Shown: positions 5,788 through 15,868, counted from the first letter of the stretch. The stretch is DNA of 15,868 nt from a virus (IMGVR_UViG_2609460059_000001); one strand, 5' to 3'. A program made the numbers and translations. Notes: generated by a model not told the origin, from the sequence alone.

Positions 5788-6118
5788 TACGGAAGAATTT
5801 TACTGGTTACCAGAGGATGGAATGAAAACAGAAAATAAGCCATCGATAAAAACTGTAAGATTTGGCGATGGTTATGAACAACGAAGCCCAAACGGACTTA
5901 ATCATTCTCTGCGTGTTTTTACCTGTGATTTCAGGGTTGAGGCGAATGAACGTAATTCATTTGAACTGTTTCTGGCTCGGCATGGAGGCTATAAATCTTT
6001 TTTTTGGCGCCCGCCGGGTATTAACAGAAAAATCAGAGTGGTGTGTCGAACGTGGTCAGCGACAGAACATATCACCTATACCGATTTTTCATGTCAGTTT
6101 GACGAAGTGGTGATCTGA
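5780..6118 (+). CDS. M: minor tail protein M (lambda gpM homologue)
   Basis: Contains [17 protein letters not shown] and [12 protein letters not shown], closely matching lambda M as recalled. The GTG at 5780 has GGAGG 8 nt upstream and overlaps the H stop by 8 nt. An in-frame ATG at 5822 is an alternative start. The stop overlaps the L start (TGATG). Confidence 0.85.
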
Positions 6119-8170: not shown

Positions 8171-11100
8171 ATGGGTAAAGGCAGCAGTAAGGGGCATACC
8201 CCGCGCGAAGCGAAGGACAACCTGAAGTCCACGCAGTTGCTGAGTGTGATCGATGCCATCAGCGAAGGGCCGATTGAAGGTCCGGGGGATGGATTAAAAA
8301 GCGTGCTGCTGAACAGTACGCCGGTGCTGGACAGTGAGGGGAATACCAATATCTCCGGCGTCACGGTGGTGTTCCGGGCAGGTGAGCAGGAGCAGACACC
8401 GCCGGAGGGATTTGAATCCTCCGGCTCCGAGACGGTGCTGGGTACGGAAGTGAAATATGACACGCCGATCACCCGGACCATCACGTCGGCAAACATTGAC
8501 CGTCTGCGTTTTACCTTCGGTGTGCAGGCACTGGTGGAAACCACCTCAAAGGGTGACCGGAATCCGTCGGAAGTCCGCCTGCTGGTTCAGATACAACGTA
8601 ACGGTGGCTGGGTGACGGAAAAAGACATTACCATTAAGGGCAAAACCACGTCGCAGTATCTGGCCTCGGTGGTGGTGGATAACCTGCCGCCGCGCCCGTT
8701 TAATATCCGGATGCGCAGGATGACGCCGGACAGCACCACAGACCAGCTGCAGAACAAAACGCTCTGGTCGTCATACACCGAAATCATCGATGTGAAACAG
8801 TGCTACCCGAACACGGCACTGGTCGGCGTACAGGTGGATTCGGAGCAGTTCGGCAGCCAGCAGGTGAGCCGTAATTATCATCTTCGCGGGCGCATTCTGC
8901 AGGTGCCGTCGAACTATAACCCGCAGACGCGGCAATACAGCGGTATCTGGGACGGAACGTTTAAGCCAGCATACAGCAACAACATGGCCTGGTGTCTGTG
9001 GGATATGCTGACCCACCCGCGCTACGGCATGGGTAAACGTCTTGGTGCGGCAGATGTGGATAAATGGGCGCTGTACGTCATCGGCCAGAATTGCGACCAG
9101 TCGGTGCCGGACGGCTTTGGTGGCACGGAGCCGCGCATCACCTGTAACGCTTACCTGACTACGCAGCGTAAAGCGTGGGATGTTCTCAGCGATTTCTGCT
9201 CGGCGATGCGCTGTATGCCGGTATGGAACGGGCAGACGCTGACGTTCGTGCAGGACCGACCGTCGGATAAGGTGTGGACCTATAACCGCAGTAATGTGGT
9301 GATGCCGGATGATGGCGCGCCATTCCGCTACAGCTTCAGCGCCCTGAAGGACCGCCATAATGCCGTTGAGGTGAACTGGATTGACCCGAATAACGGCTGG
9401 GAGACGGCGACAGAGCTTGTTGAAGATACGCAGGCCATTGCCCGTTACGGTCGTAATGTCACGAAGATGGATGCCTTTGGCTGTACCAGCCGGGGGCAGG
9501 CACACCGCGCCGGGCTGTGGCTGATTAAAACGGAACTGCTGGAGACGCAGACCGTGGATTTCAGCGTGGGTGCTGAAGGGCTTCGCCATGTACCGGGCGA
9601 TGTCATTGAAATCTGCGATGATGACTATGCCGGTATCAGCATCGGCGGGCGCGTGCTGGCGGTAAACAGCCAGACCCGGACGCTGACGCTCGACCGTGAA
9701 ATCACTCTGCCATCCTCCGGTACCACGCTGATAAGCCTGGTTGACGGAAGTGGCAATCCGGTCAGCGTGGAGGTTCAGTCCGTCACCGACGGCGTGAAGG
9801 TGAAAGTGAGCCGTGTTCCTGACGGCGTTGCTGAATACAGCGTGTGGGGGCTGAAGCTGCCGACGCTGCGCCAGCGCCTGTTCCGCTGCGTGAGTATCCG
9901 TGAGAACGACGACGGCACGTATGCCATCACCGCCGTGCAGCATGTACCGGAAAAAGAAGCCATCGTGGATAACGGGGCGCACTTTGACGGCGACCAGAGC
10001 GGCACGGTGAATGGTGTCACGCCGCCAGCGGTGCAGCACCTGACCGCCGAAGTCACCGCAGACAGCGGGGAATATCAGGTGCTGGCGCGCTGGGACACGC
10101 CGAAGGTGGTGAAGGGCGTGAGCTTCCTGCTCCGTCTGACCGTAACAGCGGATGACGGCAGTGAGCGGCTGGTCAGCACGGCCCGGACGACGGAAACCAC
10201 ATACCGCTTCAGGCAGCTGGCGCTGGGAAATTACAGGCTGACAGTCCGGGCGGTAAATGCATGGGGACAGCAGGGCGATCCTGCATCGGTATGGTTCCGG
10301 ATCGCCGCACCGGCAGCGCCGTCGCGGATTGAGCTGACGCCGGGCTATTTTCAGATAACCGCCACGCCGCATCTTGCCGTTTATGACCCGACGGTACAGT
10401 TTGAGTTCTGGTTCTCGGAAAAGCGGATTACCGATATCAGGCAGGTTGAAACCACAGCCCGCTATCTTGGTACGGCGCTGTACTGGATAGCCGCCAGTAT
10501 CAATATCAAACCGGGCCATGATTATTACTTTTATATCCGCAGTGTGAACACCGTTGGCAAATCGGCATTCGTGGAGGCCGTCGGTCGGGCGAGCGATGAT
10601 GCGGAAGGTTACCTGGATTTTTTCAAAGGCAAGATAACCGAATCCCATCTCGGCAAGGAGCTGCTGGAAAAAGTCGAGCTGACGGAGGATAACGCCAGCA
10701 GACTGGAGGAGTTTTCGAAAGAGTGGAAGGACGCCAACGATAAGTGGAATGCCATGTGGGCTGTCAAAATTGAGCAGACCAAAGACGGCAAACATTATGT
10801 CGCGGGTATTGGCCTCAGCATGGAGGACACGGAGGAAGGCAAACTGAGTCAGTTTCTGGTTGCCGCTAACCGTATCGCATTTATTGACCCGGCAAACGGG
10901 AATGAAACGCCGATGTTTGTGGCGCAGGGCAATCAGATATTCATGAACGACGTGTTCCTGAAGCGCCTGACGGCCCCCACCATTACCAGTGGTGGCAGTC
11001 CTCCGGTATTTTCCCTGACATCAGACGGAAAGCTGACCGCTAAAAATGCGGATATCAGTGGCAGTGTGAATGCGAACTCAGGAACGCTCAACAATGTCAC

Positions 11101-11584
11101 GATTAACCAGAACTGTACGATTAAGGGCATGCTGGAGGCGACCCAGGTCAGAGGGGATTTCGTTAAAGCTGTATCAAAAGCCTTCCCGAAAAAAGTCGGT
11201 ACGTGGGGTAACACGGAAACACCAGACGGTACGGTTACAGTCACCATCAGCGATGATCATAACTTTGACCGCCAGATTATTATTCCGCCCATTATTTTTA
11301 ACGGTATAGCGTATGACGATCCGGGGAGCGGAAATAACCCGGGAGGCACGCGATACACGGGTTATGGTTTTGAAGTTCGCAAAAACGGCATATTAATCGC
11401 ATCCAGAGAAACTAAAGGGGCCATTCCCGGTAGTTACAGTGCAGTTATTGATATGCCTAGTGGTGGTGGTAGCGTCACTCTGGAGTTTAAGATTTTCCAG
11501 AAAGGCAATCAGGGGGCAGGCAATATCACCGACTGTACGGTGATTGTGACCAAAAAAGCGGCTTCCGGCATCAGTATTCGTTGA
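8171..11584 (+). CDS. J: central tail fibre / host specificity protein J
   Basis: 1137 aa. The N-terminus [38 protein letters not shown] is lambda J-like, as are internal regions (fibronectin-III-like segments, [17 protein letters not shown]). GGAG lies 8 nt upstream of the ATG. The last ~150 codons are visibly lower in GC. Confidence 0.95.
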
Positions 11585-11654: not shown

Positions 11655-12254
11655 ATGCGTAAAGTTTGTGCAGCAATTTTGTCCGCAGCCATTTGTCTGG
11701 CCGTATCCGGTGCGCCTGCATGGGCGTCTGAACATCAGTCCACGCTGAGCGCGGGGTATCTTCATGCCTCGACGAACGTCCCCGGCAGTGATGATCTGAA
11801 CGGGATTAACGTGAAATACCGTTATGAGTTTACGGATACGTTGGGGCTGGTGACGTCATTCAGCTATGCAGGAGACAAGAATCGCCAGCTGACCCGTTAC
11901 AGCGATACCCGCTGGCATGAAGATTCCGTTCGTAACCGCTGGTTCAGCGTAATGGCGGGGCCGTCTGTGCGCGTGAATGAATGGTTCAGCGCGTATGCGA
12001 TGGCGGGTGTGGCTTACAGCCGTGTGTCGACTTTCTCCGGGGATTATCTCCGCGTAACTGACAACAAGGGGAAAACGCACGATGTGCTGACCGGAAGTGA
12101 TGACGGTCGCCACAGCAACACGTCTCTGGCGTGGGGAGCTGGCGTGCAGTTTAACCCGACCGAATCCGTGGCCATTGATATTGCTTATGAAGGCTCCGGC
12201 AGTGGCGACTGGCGCACTGACGGTTTCATCGTGGGTGTCGGTTATAAGTTCTGA
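11655..12254 (+). CDS. lom: Lom outer membrane protein (Ail/Lom/OmpX family beta-barrel)
   Basis: 199 aa with an N-terminal signal peptide (MRKVCAAILSAAICLAVSGAPAWA). The C-terminus IAYEGSGSGDWRTDGFIVGVGYKF matches lambda Lom as recalled, as does the internal GINVKYRYE motif. The gene sits between J and stf as in lambda. Confidence 0.9.
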   Translation: MRKVCAAILSAAICLAVSGAPAWASEHQSTLSAGYLHASTNVPGSDDLNGINVKYRYEFTDTLGLVTSFSYAGDKNRQLTRYSDTRWHEDSVRNRWFSVMAGPSVRVNEWFSAYAMAGVAYSRVSTFSGDYLRVTDNKGKTHDVLTGSDDGRHSNTSLAWGAGVQFNPTESVAIDIAYEGSGSGDWRTDGFIVGVGYKF

Positions 12255-12307: not shown

Positions 12308-12318
12308 GTGGAGTGGAT

Positions 12319-14697
12319 ATGGCAGCAGTAAAAATCTCAGGTGTGCTGAAAGATGGTGCGGGAAAACCAATACAGAACTGCACTATTCAACTGAAGGCAA
12401 AGCGTAACAGCACCACGGTACTGGTGAACACGGTGGCCTCTGAAAATCCGGATGAAGCCGGACGTTACAGCATGGATGTTGAGTATGGCCAGTACAGCGT
12501 CACCCTGCTGGTTGAAGGTTTTCCGCCTTCACATGCCGGGACCATTACCGTCTATGAAGGTTCCAGACCAGGTACGCTGAATGATTTTCTCGGCGCCATG
12601 ACGGAAGATGATGTCATGCCGGAGGCATTGCGTCGTTTTGAGGAAATGGTGGAAGAAGCGGCACGCAACGCTGAAGCCGCCTCTCAGAGCGCAGCGGCGG
12701 CAAAGAAATCCGAAACTGCAGCGGCATCATCGAAGAACGCGGCGAAAACCTCAGAAACGAATGCAGCTAACAGCGCACAGGCGGCAGCGACCTCACAGAC
12801 TGCATCGGCAAACTCCGCGACAGCAGCCAAAAAATCAGAAACCAACGCGAAAAACAGCGAGACAGCCGCAAAGACGAGCGAAACCAACGCAAAGTCCAGC
12901 CAGACGGCAGCGAAGACCAGCGAAACGAATGCCAAAGCCAGTGAAACTGCGGCAAAAAACAGCCAGGTTGCAGCAGCCCAAAGCGAGAGCGCGGCAGCCG
13001 GTTCTGCGACTTCAGCAGCTGGATCAGCAACTGCTGCGGCTAACAGCCAGAAAGCTGCGAAGACGAGTGAAACTAACGCAAAGTCCAGCCAGACGGCAGC
13101 GAAGACCAGCGAAACGAATGCCAAAGCCAGTGAAACTGCGGCGAAAAACAGTCAGGATGCTGCAGCCCAAAGCGAGAGTGCCGCAGCTGGTTCTGCAAGT
13201 GCGGCGGCTTCTTCTGCCACTGCATCAGCCAACAGTCAAAAAGCTGCAAAAACCAGTGAAACCAACGCAAAGGCGAGCGAGACTGCGGCGGCTAACTCGG
13301 CGAAAGCATCCGCTGCAAGCCAGACGGCTGCAAAAGCAAGTGAAGACGCAGCCAGAGAGTATGCAAGCCAGGCTGCGGAGCCGTATAAACAAGTTTTGCA
13401 GCCGCTTCCAGATGTGTGGATACCGTTTAACGATTCACTGGATATGATTACGGGCTTTTCGCCATCATATAAAAAGATTGTTATTGGTGATGATGAAATA
13501 ACGATGCCTGGTGACAAGGTTGTTAAGTTTAAACGCGCATCGAAAGCAACCTATATTAATAAATCTGGTGTACTGACAGAGGCTGCCATTGACGAGCCGC
13601 GATTTGAACGTGATGGCCTGCTTATTGAGGGGCAAAGAACTAATCTTCTGCTTAATTCAACAAATCCATCTAAATGGAATAAGTCAGGCAATCTGGAACT
13701 CACAGAAATATCCACGGATTATTTTAATTTTACTTATGGGAGATTTACTGTAAAAGATACTCTTATTGATCAGACAAGTGCGATTAATATCGTAACGGTT
13801 TCTGGCAGTAAAGGATTTGATGTCACAGGTGATGAAAAATATGTGACCATTTCATGCCGTGTCAGAAGTGATGTTGAAAATATAAGGTGTCGTTTAAGAT
13901 TTGAACATCATGATGGTTCTACTTACACTTTTTTGGGAGATGCTTACCTCAATTTATCAACACTTGTAATTGATAAGACTGGTGGTGCAGCAAATCGTAT
14001 TATTGCAAAGGCTGTAAAAGATGAGGCTACTGGTTGGATTTTCTATCAGGCTACAATTAATGCACTAGATACAGAGAGCATGATTGGTGCGATGGTTCAA
14101 TATGCTCCAGTAAAAGGTTCAGGCACAGCATCTGGAGACTATCTGGATATCGCAACTCCACAAGTGGAAGGTGGATCAAGTGCTTCGTCATTTATTGTAA
14201 CTGATATAACTGCAAGCACTCGCGCAAGCGATATGGTGACAGTCCCAATCAAGAATAACCTTTATAATCTTCCTTTTACGGTTCTTTGTGAGGTACATAA
14301 GAACTGGTATAAAACGCCAAATGCAGCGCCACGTGTTTTTGATACCGGTGGTCATCAAACCGGAGCGGCTATTATTCTTGGCTTCGGTCGTTCAACAGAT
14401 TATGACGGATTTCCTTATTGCGATATTGGAGGAGCTAACAGACGGGTAAACGAAAACGCATTGCTTGAAAAAATGGTTATGGGGATGCGTGTAAAGTCAG
14501 ATCAGTCTACGTGCTCAGTAAGTAACGGGCGTATATCCAGCGAAACAAAAGCCACATGGTCCTATATTCAGAACACCGCAATTATCCGTATTGGAGGCCA
14601 GACTACAGCCGGGTTACGTCATTTATTTGGTCATGTCAGGAATTTCAGAATATGGCACAAGGCATTGACTGATGCTCAGGTGGGGGAGTTAATCTAA
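12319..14697 (+). CDS. stf: side tail fibre protein (Stf-like) with a non-lambda distal domain
   Basis: The N-terminus MAAVKISGVLKDGAGKPIQNCTIQLKAKRNSTTV...GQYSVTLLVEGFPPSHAGTITVYEG is lambda Stf-like. The shaft is built of Ala/Ser/Thr-rich heptad repeats (xSETNAx). The distal ~430 aa is AT-rich and ends GHVRNFRIWHKALTDAQVGELI, reminiscent of the C-terminal signature of Laminin_G_3 / ConA-like lectin domains. The ATG at 12319 has GGAG 5 nt upstream; the longest ORF starts at GTG 12313. Confidence 0.85.
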   Translation: MAAVKISGVLKDGAGKPIQNCTIQLKAKRNSTTVLVNTVASENPDEAGRYSMDVEYGQYSVTLLVEGFPPSHAGTITVYEGSRPGTLNDFLGAMTEDDVMPEALRRFEEMVEEAARNAEAASQSAAAAKKSETAAASSKNAAKTSETNAANSAQAAATSQTASANSATAAKKSETNAKNSETAAKTSETNAKSSQTAAKTSETNAKASETAAKNSQVAAAQSESAAAGSATSAAGSATAAANSQKAAKTSETNAKSSQTAAKTSETNAKASETAAKNSQDAAAQSESAAAGSASAAASSATASANSQKAAKTSETNAKASETAAANSAKASAASQTAAKASEDAAREYASQAAEPYKQVLQPLPDVWIPFNDSLDMITGFSPSYKKIVIGDDEITMPGDKVVKFKRASKATYINKSGVLTEAAIDEPRFERDGLLIEGQRTNLLLNSTNPSKWNKSGNLELTEISTDYFNFTYGRFTVKDTLIDQTSAINIVTVSGSKGFDVTGDEKYVTISCRVRSDVENIRCRLRFEHHDGSTYTFLGDAYLNLSTLVIDKTGGAANRIIAKAVKDEATGWIFYQATINALDTESMIGAMVQYAPVKGSGTASGDYLDIATPQVEGGSSASSFIVTDITASTRASDMVTVPIKNNLYNLPFTVLCEVHKNWYKTPNAAPRVFDTGGHQTGAAIILGFGRSTDYDGFPYCDIGGANRRVNENALLEKMVMGMRVKSDQSTCSVSNGRISSETKATWSYIQNTAIIRIGGQTTAGLRHLFGHVRNFRIWHKALTDAQVGELI
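12871..13248 (+). repeat. in-frame tandem duplication of a 189-bp (63-aa) unit inside the stf shaft, itself built of degenerate 21/42-bp sub-repeats
   Basis: Two copies at 189-bp offset. The first ~75 bp are near-identical (aagacgag(c/t)gaaac(c/t)aacgcaaagtccagccagacggcagcgaagaccagcgaaacgaatgccaaagccagtgaaactgcggc) and the rest has scattered substitutions. The protein copies read KTSETNAKSSQTAAKTSETNAKASETAAKNSQ(V/D)AAAQSESAAAGSA... Confidence 0.85.
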
Positions 14698-14978
14698 TGA
14701 AAGATTTAACACTCAAATTTGTCGACAGGGCCGACTTTTCGGCCTTTATGGAGAGTATCGGCTATTATGATGATGAGTCGATGCAGGATGATATTCTTAT
14801 TGACGTGATAGGTAACGTGTACAAAGAAACCGGAGAACTTACCGAAGATGGCGAGCCGGTATGTGTTAAGGAAGACGGATATTTTGTAAACGTGCGCATC
14901 ATTAATGATGCAAAAAAATCGTCAATATTCGATGAATACGTGGTTGCTGTTGAGCATCAACTTCGTGGCTGGATGTGA
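14697..14978 (+). CDS. hypothetical acidic 93-aa protein, translationally coupled to stf (possible fibre chaperone or accessory protein)
   Basis: The ATG overlaps the stf stop (TAATG) and GGGGGAG lies 8-9 nt upstream. Low GC like the stf distal domain. Very acidic (D/E-rich). No recognisable family; it occupies the position of tfa but does not resemble lambda Tfa. Confidence 0.5.
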   Translation: MKDLTLKFVDRADFSAFMESIGYYDDESMQDDILIDVIGNVYKETGELTEDGEPVCVKEDGYFVNVRIINDAKKSSIFDEYVVAVEHQLRGWM

Positions 14979-14987
14979 GGAAGAAAA

Positions 14988-15671
14988 ATGGCTACATCGA
15001 CAGTAATTCCTGAAGACATCAAAACGCTAAAATCCGACGTTAGCAAATTAAAAAACGATCAAGGAAGCTACGCAACAAAATCATATGTAGACAGCAAAGA
15101 TGAAACCGTTGGTGACTGGTCTGCTTCATGGTATCAGCAGGTATTGCCAACTAGCGGAGCTATATTTGGGAGAAAACTCCGCTCAACTCACAGGACGGCA
15201 GGTGTTGAGGATGCGTATTGCGAACTATACCTCAAAAAATGGATAGACAGTCCAGGTAACGCAATGGCGCGCCTTAACCTGAACGATAACGGGACAAACA
15301 TTTGCTGGGACTTTACCAACCTTTATGGCGGTACGATGATTTTTCCCGGTGACAGCGGATACCTCAAAATGGGTAACTGCCTTATGTCATACAGTAAGCG
15401 TGGAAGTAACGCGCTTATTAAATTTGATTACACCGACACATTACAGATCAAATATGCCAATCATGGGTCAACCATGACATTAAACACACAGGGAACCGCT
15501 TATGCTGGTGTTACTGCTCAATTGTGGGGCAACTCCAGCCGTCCTGTTGTTTATGAAGTCGGTGTTGATGGTGGCGCTTATATGTTCTATGCGCAGAAAA
15601 CTACCAGCAATACCTACGAATTAACGGTTAACGGCGCGTGCAATGCAAGTGCATCAAACCCGGTTGTATGA
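14988..15671 (+). CDS. hypothetical 227-aa protein, possible tail-fibre-associated adhesin or moron
   Basis: RBS GAGGAAG 4 nt upstream of the ATG. The N-terminus has a short coiled-coil-like stretch (PEDIKTLKSDVSKLKND) followed by a Gly/Asn/Thr/Tyr-rich region typical of beta-rich receptor-binding domains. Low GC. The last 7 codons and the stop lie inside the left arm of the palindrome. Confidence 0.5.
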   Translation: MATSTVIPEDIKTLKSDVSKLKNDQGSYATKSYVDSKDETVGDWSASWYQQVLPTSGAIFGRKLRSTHRTAGVEDAYCELYLKKWIDSPGNAMARLNLNDNGTNICWDFTNLYGGTMIFPGDSGYLKMGNCLMSYSKRGSNALIKFDYTDTLQIKYANHGSTMTLNTQGTAYAGVTAQLWGNSSRPVVYEVGVDGGAYMFYAQKTTSNTYELTVNGACNASASNPVV

Positions 15672-15868
15672 AGATCACTGGCGTCCAATGGAAGTCGCTT
15701 TTGGTCAGCAAGGTTACAGCGAATATTTTGACGCATAAAACTGTCAAAATATTCGCTGTAACCTTGCTGACCAAAAGCGACTTCCATTGGACGCCAGTGA
15801 TCTTCATACAACCGGGTTTGATGCTCTGGTTCGAGGCCCATCAGAATAAAATTGCGCACCAGATCGGC
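15614..15868 (-). CDS. possible 3' end of a convergent minus-strand gene, open to the window edge; real extent uncertain because it reads through the palindrome
   Basis: The minus-strand frame is open from the window edge to the stop at 15614. Across the right arm it encodes protein-like sequence (...ADLVRNFILMGLEPEHQTRLYEDHWRPMEVAFGQQGYSEYFD...). The part read across the left arm is just the inverted copy and may not be genuine coding sequence. Confidence 0.25.
   Translation of the reverse strand, partial: ADLVRNFILMGLEPEHQTRLYEDHWRPMEVAFGQQGYSEYFDSFMRQNIRCNLADQKRLPLDASDLHTTGFDALALHAPLTVNS
15651..15824. repeat. perfect inverted repeat / palindrome: 82-bp arms (15651-15732 and 15743-15824) around a 10-bp non-symmetric spacer (15733-15742, gcataaaact)
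   Basis: Checked base by base: every position i in the left arm is complementary to position 31475-i in the right arm, with no mismatches. The symmetry breaks at 15650/15825. Confidence 0.95.

Follow-up and report, generated by a model that had tools for sequence, protein, structure and literature searches.

Organization of the locus

The window analysed here is the whole of one draft viral contig (IMGVR_UViG_2609460059_000001) of 15,868 nucleotides (nt), and all positions are counted on its full length. It carries a lambda-like tail module with the gene order tail terminator, tube protein, tape measure, M, L, K, I, J, lom and stf. The present study concerns the two open reading frames (ORFs) located directly downstream of the side tail fibre gene stf, the first of which encodes an acidic protein of 93 amino acids (aa), and the second an apparent protein of 227 aa. 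The features of interest are listed in Table 1. The region very probably belongs to a lambda-like prophage and corresponds to the downstream portion of an operon for a modular side (lateral) tail fibre of two segments, whose distal fibre gene is truncated in this contig.

Table 1. Positions of the fibre module, its translation signals, the contig end and the neighbouring genes in the window.
Feature	Position	Strand	Description
stf	12313-14697	+	proximal side tail fibre subunit, 794 aa
Low-GC C-terminal block of Stf	13381-14697	+	residues ~357-794, ~440 aa
Translational coupling signal	14682-14699	+	ribosome-binding site GGGGGAG 14682-14688; TAATG stop/start overlap 14695-14699
93-aa acidic fibre accessory protein (phrog_1361 family)	14697-14978	+	
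Ribosome-binding site GAGGAAG and ATG of the distal fibre	14977-14990	+	ribosome-binding site 14977-14983 overlaps TGA of the 93-aa gene; ATG at 14988
227-aa ORF	14988-15671	+	codons 1-222 authentic, rest foreign
Authentic part of the distal tail fibre gene	14988-15654	+	codons 1-222 of 346; 100% identical to NZ_CP145513
Artificial ORF end (..SNPVV*)	15655-15671	+	read from foreign DNA
Fold-back contig end, in all likelihood chimeric	15651-15868	-	
J	8171-11584		
lom	11655-12254		

Both ORFs, the TAATG overlap and the GGGGGAG ribosome-binding site are present as described in an earlier note that had been made from this sequence alone. The stop codon TAA of stf (14695-14697) and the ATG of the 93-aa gene (14697-14699) overlap by a single base, with GGGGGAG situated 8 nt upstream. 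A comparable overlap of 1 or 4 nt can be observed in tonn, EC100, JenP1, nimi, IrisVonRoten and phage 21. Between the 93-aa gene and the following gene there is a gap of 9 nt, a spacing that is kept in related loci. The compositional features pointed out in the same note are equally confirmed by measurement. The GC content is 0.415 in the 93-aa gene, 0.447 in the 227-aa gene and 0.409 in the C-terminal part of stf (its last 1.3 kb), compared with 0.552 in the N-terminus and shaft of stf. The 93-aa protein is strongly acidic, with 21 D+E versus 9 K+R and a net charge of about -12, and residues 101-227 of the second ORF are rich in Gly, Thr, Asn and Tyr. Neither product resembles Tfa, as had been claimed, since no Pfam family was matched by either of them at E ≤ 1, Tfa families included. 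Both ORFs are supported as real genes by PHROG matches with E values of 1.7e-46 and 2e-144 and by the presence of the region in more than 2000 genomes of Escherichia coli (E. coli). These PHROG matches include phrog_1361 and phrog_18574, both of which are labelled 'unknown function'.

The second gene and its intact form

The protein encoded by the second ORF had been regarded as uncharacterised, which proved to be incorrect. Its residues 1-224 match positions 1-224 of 346 of phrog_4563, labelled 'tail fiber protein' (E 6e-129), and are 99.6% identical to the 346-aa protein of NZ_CP145513, establishing orthology to this family. The homologous gene in 321 complete E. coli genomes encodes a tail-fibre protein of 346 aa with a C-terminal Peptidase_S74 domain, and in genomes that are 100% identical upstream the product is annotated 'tail fiber domain-containing protein'. 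The intact 346-aa orthologue matches phrog_4563 over 346/346 positions and displays PF13884 at residues 227-278 (E 6.5e-14; 52.4 bits versus a cutoff of 22) together with a terminal coiled coil. All full-length relatives in a collection of 5.8 billion proteins carry PF13884. Furthermore, the C-terminus of the intact fibre aligns with the distal subunit of the S16 long tail fibre (PDB 6F45), including the S-D-R-x-x-K site, and residues S227, D228, R229 and K232 are conserved in at least 90% of orthologues. In the alignment of the family (A4), the window copy stops agreeing with every other sequence five residues ahead of the near-invariant SDRDLK motif (..NASA|SNPVV*). No Peptidase_S74 domain is matched by Pfam in the 227-aa ORF, and the motif of the S-D-R-x-x-K type that holds the cleavage-site Ser and catalytic Lys is absent from it, because the gene is cut at codon 222.

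In the authentic part of the gene, the N-terminal docking peptide (MATSTVIPEDIKTLK) is followed by a short heptad region and by a receptor-binding region rich in beta structure. Sequence searches returned no solved relative for the receptor-binding part (residues ~40-225), and the AlphaFold monomer model of the 346-aa fibre, having a predicted local distance difference test (pLDDT) score of 40, was unusable. From its domain content, the second gene is a distal fibre subunit predicted to trimerise with its own intramolecular chaperone. The second fibre needs no tfa because it brings this chaperone with it. Judged by the test named in the earlier note, the second ORF is thereby an ordinary fibre component of an already known type. 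The proposal that the two ORFs replace tfa is thus supported in that no Tfa match exists, but it is incomplete, as the full loci carry one further gene after the distal fibre, encoding a membrane protein of 96 aa. The 96-97-aa membrane proteins that close intact modules have two predicted transmembrane segments and belong to phrog_1443 (function unknown). The copy in a prophage carrying cdt (locus L001, 7772-8062) and that of phage 21 (locus L013, 4792-5085) are 93% identical.

The probably chimeric end of the contig

The position at which the distal fibre gene is interrupted lies within an abnormal contig end. In a megablast search of 5426 complete E. coli genomes, the region was found in 2148, with mismatches beginning at base 15655 and no match running past base 15654. 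Bases 15729-15868 constitute a fragment of a DUF262/GmrSD-type gene, coding on the minus strand, while 15651-15732 is the exact reverse complement of 15743-15824, that is, an inverted copy of the same fragment. The resulting palindrome has arms of 85 nt that are 99% complementary and are separated by a spacer of 10 nt. The junction between the phage gene and the foreign DNA displays a 4-nt microhomology, GCAT. In 1308 E. coli genomes the DUF262 fragment maps to one chromosomal site between symE and yjiS, in the hsd or 'immigration control' region, a site without connection to any prophage. A single contig has the exact 227-aa product on record, JFFL01000161.1 (draft assembly GCA_000599765.2), and this contig is the window itself. 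The fold-back also creates spurious ORFs on the minus strand, at 15614-15859 and 15628-15807.

In all likelihood the contig end is an assembly or library chimera, which is the most economical reading because two abnormal junctions occur in the last 220 bases of a draft contig and neither is present in any complete genome. Alternatively, the truncation could reflect a real rearrangement, with the prophage decaying and part of a yjiT-like gene being duplicated in inverted orientation, in which case the gene would be a true pseudogene because the part lost is the folding domain. Microhomology of 4 nt at the junction is as found in real illegitimate recombination, decay of tail-fibre genes is frequent in prophages (IMG/VR loci contain further truncated versions, 157-323 aa in length), and the contig is reported for two samples. 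Such a rearrangement is nevertheless unlikely, since the phage/DUF262 junction and the fold-back with its 10-nt loop are independent abnormalities, 0 of the 5426 complete genomes span the junction, and the DUF262 fragment is normally found at a single locus far from prophages. In addition, a near-perfect palindrome with 85-nt arms would be unstable in E. coli. The '227-aa protein' is almost certainly an artefact of the distal gene breaking off after codon 222, with five residues still to go to the autocleavage motif. The ORF itself is present, as claimed, but its length and C-terminus are not authentic, the gene comprising 346 aa in complete genomes. The corrective value of this result is that an apparently novel 'adhesin' of 227 aa is a well-populated tail-fibre gene truncated by a chimeric contig end.

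The proximal fibre

Over its full length Stf matches phrog_1419. Its N-terminus is a lambda-type attachment domain (PF08400 at residues 5-134, E 7e-67) and its shaft is rich in Ala, Ser and Thr and composed of 7-aa repeats. A Pfam search detected no PF13884 in Stf, so that the proximal fibre is without an intramolecular chaperone. The layout of the C-terminal block was derived from sliding-window conservation: a conserved junction (363-455), variable receptor-binding stretches (456-608 and 683-754), and a final 40 aa that are again more conserved. Residues 437-638 match the NCBIfam model GTA_spike_fiber (E 1.4e-15), and a search of PDB matched residues 406-653 to 6TB9, the head spike fibre of RcGTA (E 1.7e-4). 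By BLASTP the block was found in JenP1, rolling, tonn, EC100 and nimi. Stf 355-794 is ~70% identical to the C-terminal half of Gp22 of IrisVonRoten, the end of which has been described as a galectin-like domain (PMC11990801).

Several further observations on stf were made. Within the shaft (window 12734-13344), 21-nt repeats encoding 7-aa units of the SETNAK/TAAK type are accompanied by a higher-order duplication of 189 nt. The AT skew is very strong in the shaft, reaching 0.6, and the repeats yield several long spurious ORFs on both strands (e.g., 12608-13447 on the plus strand and 12684-13124 on the minus strand). A sharp GC step from 0.55 to 0.39 near 13400, inside stf, marks a mosaic joint and coincides with the start of the block that is common to several phage families.

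Distribution and gene order of the module

Queried with the window protein, tblastn detected the small protein in 186 phage records, and a T5-type query detected it in 206. The C-terminal block of Stf was detected in 218 phage records, with taxon counts practically those of the small protein. Carriers of the small protein include lambda-like phages (among them the classical phage 21 and mEp460), Drexlerviridae (tonn), Dhillonvirus (rolling), rV5-like myoviruses (nimi), the Queuovirinae genera Nonagvirus (JenP1) and Seuratvirus (VogelGryff), and Tequintavirus and Epseptimavirus (EC100, IrisVonRoten, AKFV33 and FGS017). In every case inspected (12 phages and the parsed IMG/VR loci), the small gene overlaps the end of a large fibre gene by 1-4 nt, and the product of this fibre gene is homologous to Stf 351-794 over its final ~440 aa. 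Even the most diverged Stf block, that of AKFV33 with 31% identity, precedes a family member of 88 aa. The order of three genes with overlap is found in the lambda-like 2G7b, in the T5-like EC100, IrisVonRoten, AKFV33 and FGS017, and likewise in tonn of the Drexlerviridae, the Nonagvirus JenP1 and the Seuratvirus VogelGryff. The gene after the small one usually encodes a second fibre. These fibres have unrelated bodies, with alleles of 346, 234, 224, 351, 388, 557, 574 and 576 aa, but they always start with M-x-T-x-T-x-IP-x-DI-x-x-LK and always end in an S74-type cleavage motif and a coiled coil. The module is a very common route to two-segment side fibres in coliphages, occurring in hundreds of E. 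coli prophages and ~200 sequenced phages.

In E. coli prophages, at least two distal-fibre alleles (346 aa and 234 aa) are found behind near-identical small proteins. The 234-aa allele (locus L018, 5292-5996, and other IMG/VR loci) consists of little beyond the coiled coil and intramolecular chaperone. It matches the C-terminus of a 1385-aa PHROG, phrog_3299, and in some phages this segment is therefore fused into one long fibre.

At least six phage groups, temperate as well as virulent, keep the coupled position of the small gene between fibre genes, and this argues for a role of the 93-aa protein in virion assembly. It bears directly on the suggestion, raised in the earlier note for the pair and considered here also for the acidic protein alone, that these genes might be cargo unrelated to the fibre, such as a moron, a superinfection-exclusion function or a DNA-mimic anti-restriction protein. 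The 93-aa protein is indeed small and strongly acidic, no member of its family has an annotated function, and the region past stf is a known moron site where cdtABC and sitABCD are situated just beyond the module in relatives. Cargo is nonetheless very improbable, given the fixed slot with overlapping stop and start codons that the gene occupies between fibre genes, both in prophages and in virulent phages (T5-like, T1-like and rV5-like), the strict co-occurrence of the small protein with one fibre domain, and the second ORF being demonstrably a fibre. The predicted fold is compact alpha/beta and not an elongated DNA-like helix bundle. The features expected of a DNA mimic of the Ocr or ArdA type thus appear to be lacking, the gene lying in a late tail-fibre operon with coupled translation and its product showing a compact predicted fold and no meaningful match in Pfam or NCBIfam.

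The 93-aa accessory protein

Residues 1-93 of the small protein match positions 1-92 of 92 of phrog_1361 (E 1.7e-46), making it a full-length member of this family, which also corresponds to VOG7707. The homologues in nimi and AKFV33 share the same PHROG. An AlphaFold model built with an alignment of 50 sequences confidently predicts a small alpha/beta domain (pLDDT 80.9, predicted template modelling score 0.67) in which the elements follow the order beta-alpha-alpha-beta-beta-beta-beta-alpha. The C-terminal tail is predicted to be flexible, is conserved, and ends in ..LR.W with an invariant Trp. Sequence searches of Pfam, NCBIfam and PDB returned no meaningful match, and a search of BFVD returned uncharacterised phage proteins only. 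Membership of a Tfa or other chaperone family is therefore without support in Pfam or NCBIfam, and a confident match of this kind, named in the earlier note as the result that would make the module an ordinary one, did not emerge for the 93-aa protein. A profile search of 1.84 billion representatives yielded only 80 clusters. The phrog_1361 family is small, phage-restricted and without an assigned function.

The profile additionally gives multi-stretch matches in giant PKD-repeat proteins (P0185, P0195 and P0204). These were rejected as homologues because the fold of the 93-aa protein is predicted to be alpha/beta and not Ig-like. The matches probably arise from a shared beta-hairpin motif, G-x-Y-x-V-x-V-x-(V/I)-x-D.

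Covariation within the module and the FGS017 recombinant

Covariation was measured as Spearman correlation of pairwise identities in 68 non-redundant loci with a distal fibre. The identity of the small protein correlates most strongly with that of the first 20 aa of the distal fibre (0.85), and the value decreases to 0.51 for distal residues 21-60. For the last 40 aa of Stf it is 0.54, and for the variable Stf stretches (456-608 and 683-754) about 0.1-0.4. The covariation with the distal N-terminus suggests a tie between the small protein and the docking peptide.

A natural recombinant leads to the same picture. The virulent T5-like Salmonella phage vB_Si_CECAV_FGS017 (PP429239) shows 97-100% DNA identity to window 13459-14538, which contains the receptor-binding block of Stf. 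Identity drops to ~70-78% in the last ~50 codons of stf and to ~55% in the small gene, and for its distal fibre FGS017 has the T5-type allele. The right-hand breakpoint of the shared block is located ~50 codons before the stf stop. This pattern indicates that a Stf block of ~1.1 kb was recently exchanged, the partners being a temperate prophage of E. coli and a virulent phage from a different host genus, and the block is a clear case of temperate/virulent exchange. The receptor-binding block of Stf has therefore been exchanged independently of the downstream genes, which contradicts the idea that all three had been acquired together as one cassette. As judged from these identities, the stretch bound to lineage runs from the final ~50 aa of Stf through the small protein to the peptide with which the distal fibre begins. 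Covariation of a chaperone with the receptor-binding tip, in the manner of Tfa, was not observed for the small protein, neither in the correlations with the variable stretches nor in FGS017.

Proposed role of the small protein

Taken at the level of sequence, the module comprises a proximal fibre without a built-in chaperone, a distal subunit that appears to be self-chaperoned, and a small protein genetically tied to the proximal end. It may be proposed that the distal fibre uses the ~15-20 conserved residues at its N-terminus to dock onto the proximal fibre at its end. As a small joint or cap, the 93-aa protein would bind the proximal fibre at its extreme C-terminus, which is conserved, and would finish or stabilise this end; where a distal fibre is present it would form part of the socket for the docking peptide. 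We consider such a virion-associated joint or cap role to stand at about an even chance. It would explain the lineage-constant block, the covariation of the docking peptide and the conserved flexible tail, as well as the retention of the small protein where no distal fibre exists, in which case it would act as a cap. The GenBank label of IrisVonRoten gp23, 'tail fiber protein', fits this role.

Several observations weigh against the joint or cap role. In 47 of the 172 parsed loci, those of the phage 21 type, the small gene is followed by a 97-aa membrane protein with two transmembrane segments and no distal fibre. In the rV5-like nimi, no fibre with the docking motif was found in 49 kb of tail genes. 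Such loci retain an intact and conserved small protein, its C-terminal tail included. The searches made found no homologue of known function. Moreover, simple linkage of two genes 9 nt apart, together with lineage structure, could account for the covariation with the distal N-terminus, the sample consisting mostly of near-identical E. coli prophages. The notion that the small protein is a connector only was rejected, since loci of the phage 21 and rV5 types keep it without a distal fibre; it is not merely a connector because of this retention.

Not far behind, though less probable, is a reading in which the 93-aa protein acts only transiently, as a non-structural chaperone in the assembly of the proximal fibre, and is part of neither the virion nor the joint. 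Its function would then parallel that of lambda Tfa, T4 gp38 or gp57A, its fold being unrelated to theirs. This would account for the gene position and for the retention of the small protein without a distal fibre as well as the joint or cap role does, since the gene directly follows, and is translationally coupled to, a chaperone-less fibre gene in every lineage, whereas the self-chaperoned distal fibre needs no helper. The small size and acidity of the protein would also agree, several fibre chaperones being likewise small and acidic. However, it has no similarity in sequence or fold to any Tfa or chaperone family, its best covariation is with the docking peptide of the distal fibre, and it does not covary with the variable receptor-binding parts, unlike classical chaperones of the Tfa/gp38 type. 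The combination of a fibre chaperone and an auxiliary adhesin, put forward in the earlier note, thus survives in part, the second gene being an adhesin-type fibre and the chaperone function of the first a possibility.

Extending the joint or cap role, the 93-aa protein might tentatively be regarded as a widely shared 'plug-and-socket' connector, seated on the C-terminal end of the proximal fibre and accepting distal peptides of ~15-20 residues. This extension is possible but on balance doubtful. If true, phages of the lambda-like, T1, T5, Nonagvirus and Dhillonvirus types could swap receptor-binding fibres as cassettes, and the small protein would represent a new class of fibre joint protein without a solved structural relative. 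Whether the protein is a connector or a chaperone matters for the engineering of chimeric fibres, for example in retargeting lambda- or T5-based particles, as swapping distal fibres would need the right partner protein to be carried along.

Comparison with known fibre systems

The closest system is that of IrisVonRoten (BASEL collection phage Bas32), in which the proximal fibre Gp22 carries a T-shaped distal fibre, Gp24, with an intramolecular chaperone (PMC11990801). Gp24 is modelled as attached to the proximal fibre, and no role is assigned to the small protein Gp23 in that work. The gene order and overlaps of gp22-gp24 are the same as here, Gp23 belongs to the small-protein family, and Gp24, like the present distal fibre, begins with the docking peptide and ends in an intramolecular chaperone. 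The differences lie in the N-terminal attachment domain, which is T5-type in IrisVonRoten and not of the lambda Stf type, and in the distal fibre, which is a T-shaped protein of 574 aa with a Gp12-like domain compared with the 346-aa allele here. The arrangement of proximal block, small gene and distal fibre is found both in IrisVonRoten and in the intact version of the present module, and its last element is truncated in the window. As a module, it is thus already described in IrisVonRoten.

The branched LtfA/LtfB fibres of the T5-like phages DT57C and DT571/2 (PMC4728585, PMC10713586) similarly involve two consecutive fibre genes, the second product being attached via the first and not to the tail, and each fibre may bear its own glycan-binding domain. 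They differ in that both LtfA and LtfB of DT57C end in Peptidase_S74, which the proximal fibre here lacks. In the descriptions of DT57C compared here, no small gene between ltfA and ltfB is mentioned, whereas the 93-aa gene is always present between the fibre genes of the module. Fibres and spikes with PF13884, such as K1F endosialidase, T5 pb1, GA-1 gp12 and S16 gp37, resemble the intact orthologues in the domain itself, the SDR..K motif and the terminal coiled coil, but not the window copy, from which the whole domain is lost at the chimeric contig end.

With lambda Stf/Tfa the module shares the slot after J-lom-stf, a small gene directly after the fibre gene, and the PF08400 N-terminus. It departs from the Tfa-type chaperones (lambda Tfa, Mu U, P2 G and T4 gp38) in the lack of a Tfa match, the lack of covariation with the tip, and the presence of a second fibre gene. 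RcGTA Rcc01080 (PDB 6TB9) is homologous to Stf 406-653, a likeness that concerns the upstream fibre only, and its domain sits on a capsid compared with the tail fibre considered here. More generally, small siphoviruses and T5-like phages build their lateral fibres from one, two or more proteins that are conserved only N-terminally (PMC8594841). As a source of virion proteomics, rV5 (PMC3606486) was uninformative, its large fibre gp41 ending in an intramolecular chaperone instead. A preprint from Eligo on the engineering of lambda Stf contained nothing on this fibre module.

Additional observations on the window and related loci

At the junction between the tape-measure gene and the M-L region, near 6100, another sharp change in GC content, from ~0.44 to 0.58, is located at a mosaic joint. 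Within the GC-rich gene J there is an antisense ORF of 674 aa (8771-10795, minus strand), which is almost certainly spurious. The site downstream of the fibre module is a moron hot spot. Cargo located just past the module includes the cytolethal distending toxin type IV genes cdtABC in strain L1PEag1 (locus L001, 8575-10675) and the iron/manganese transporter genes sitABCD in phage 21 (locus L013, 5177-8626).

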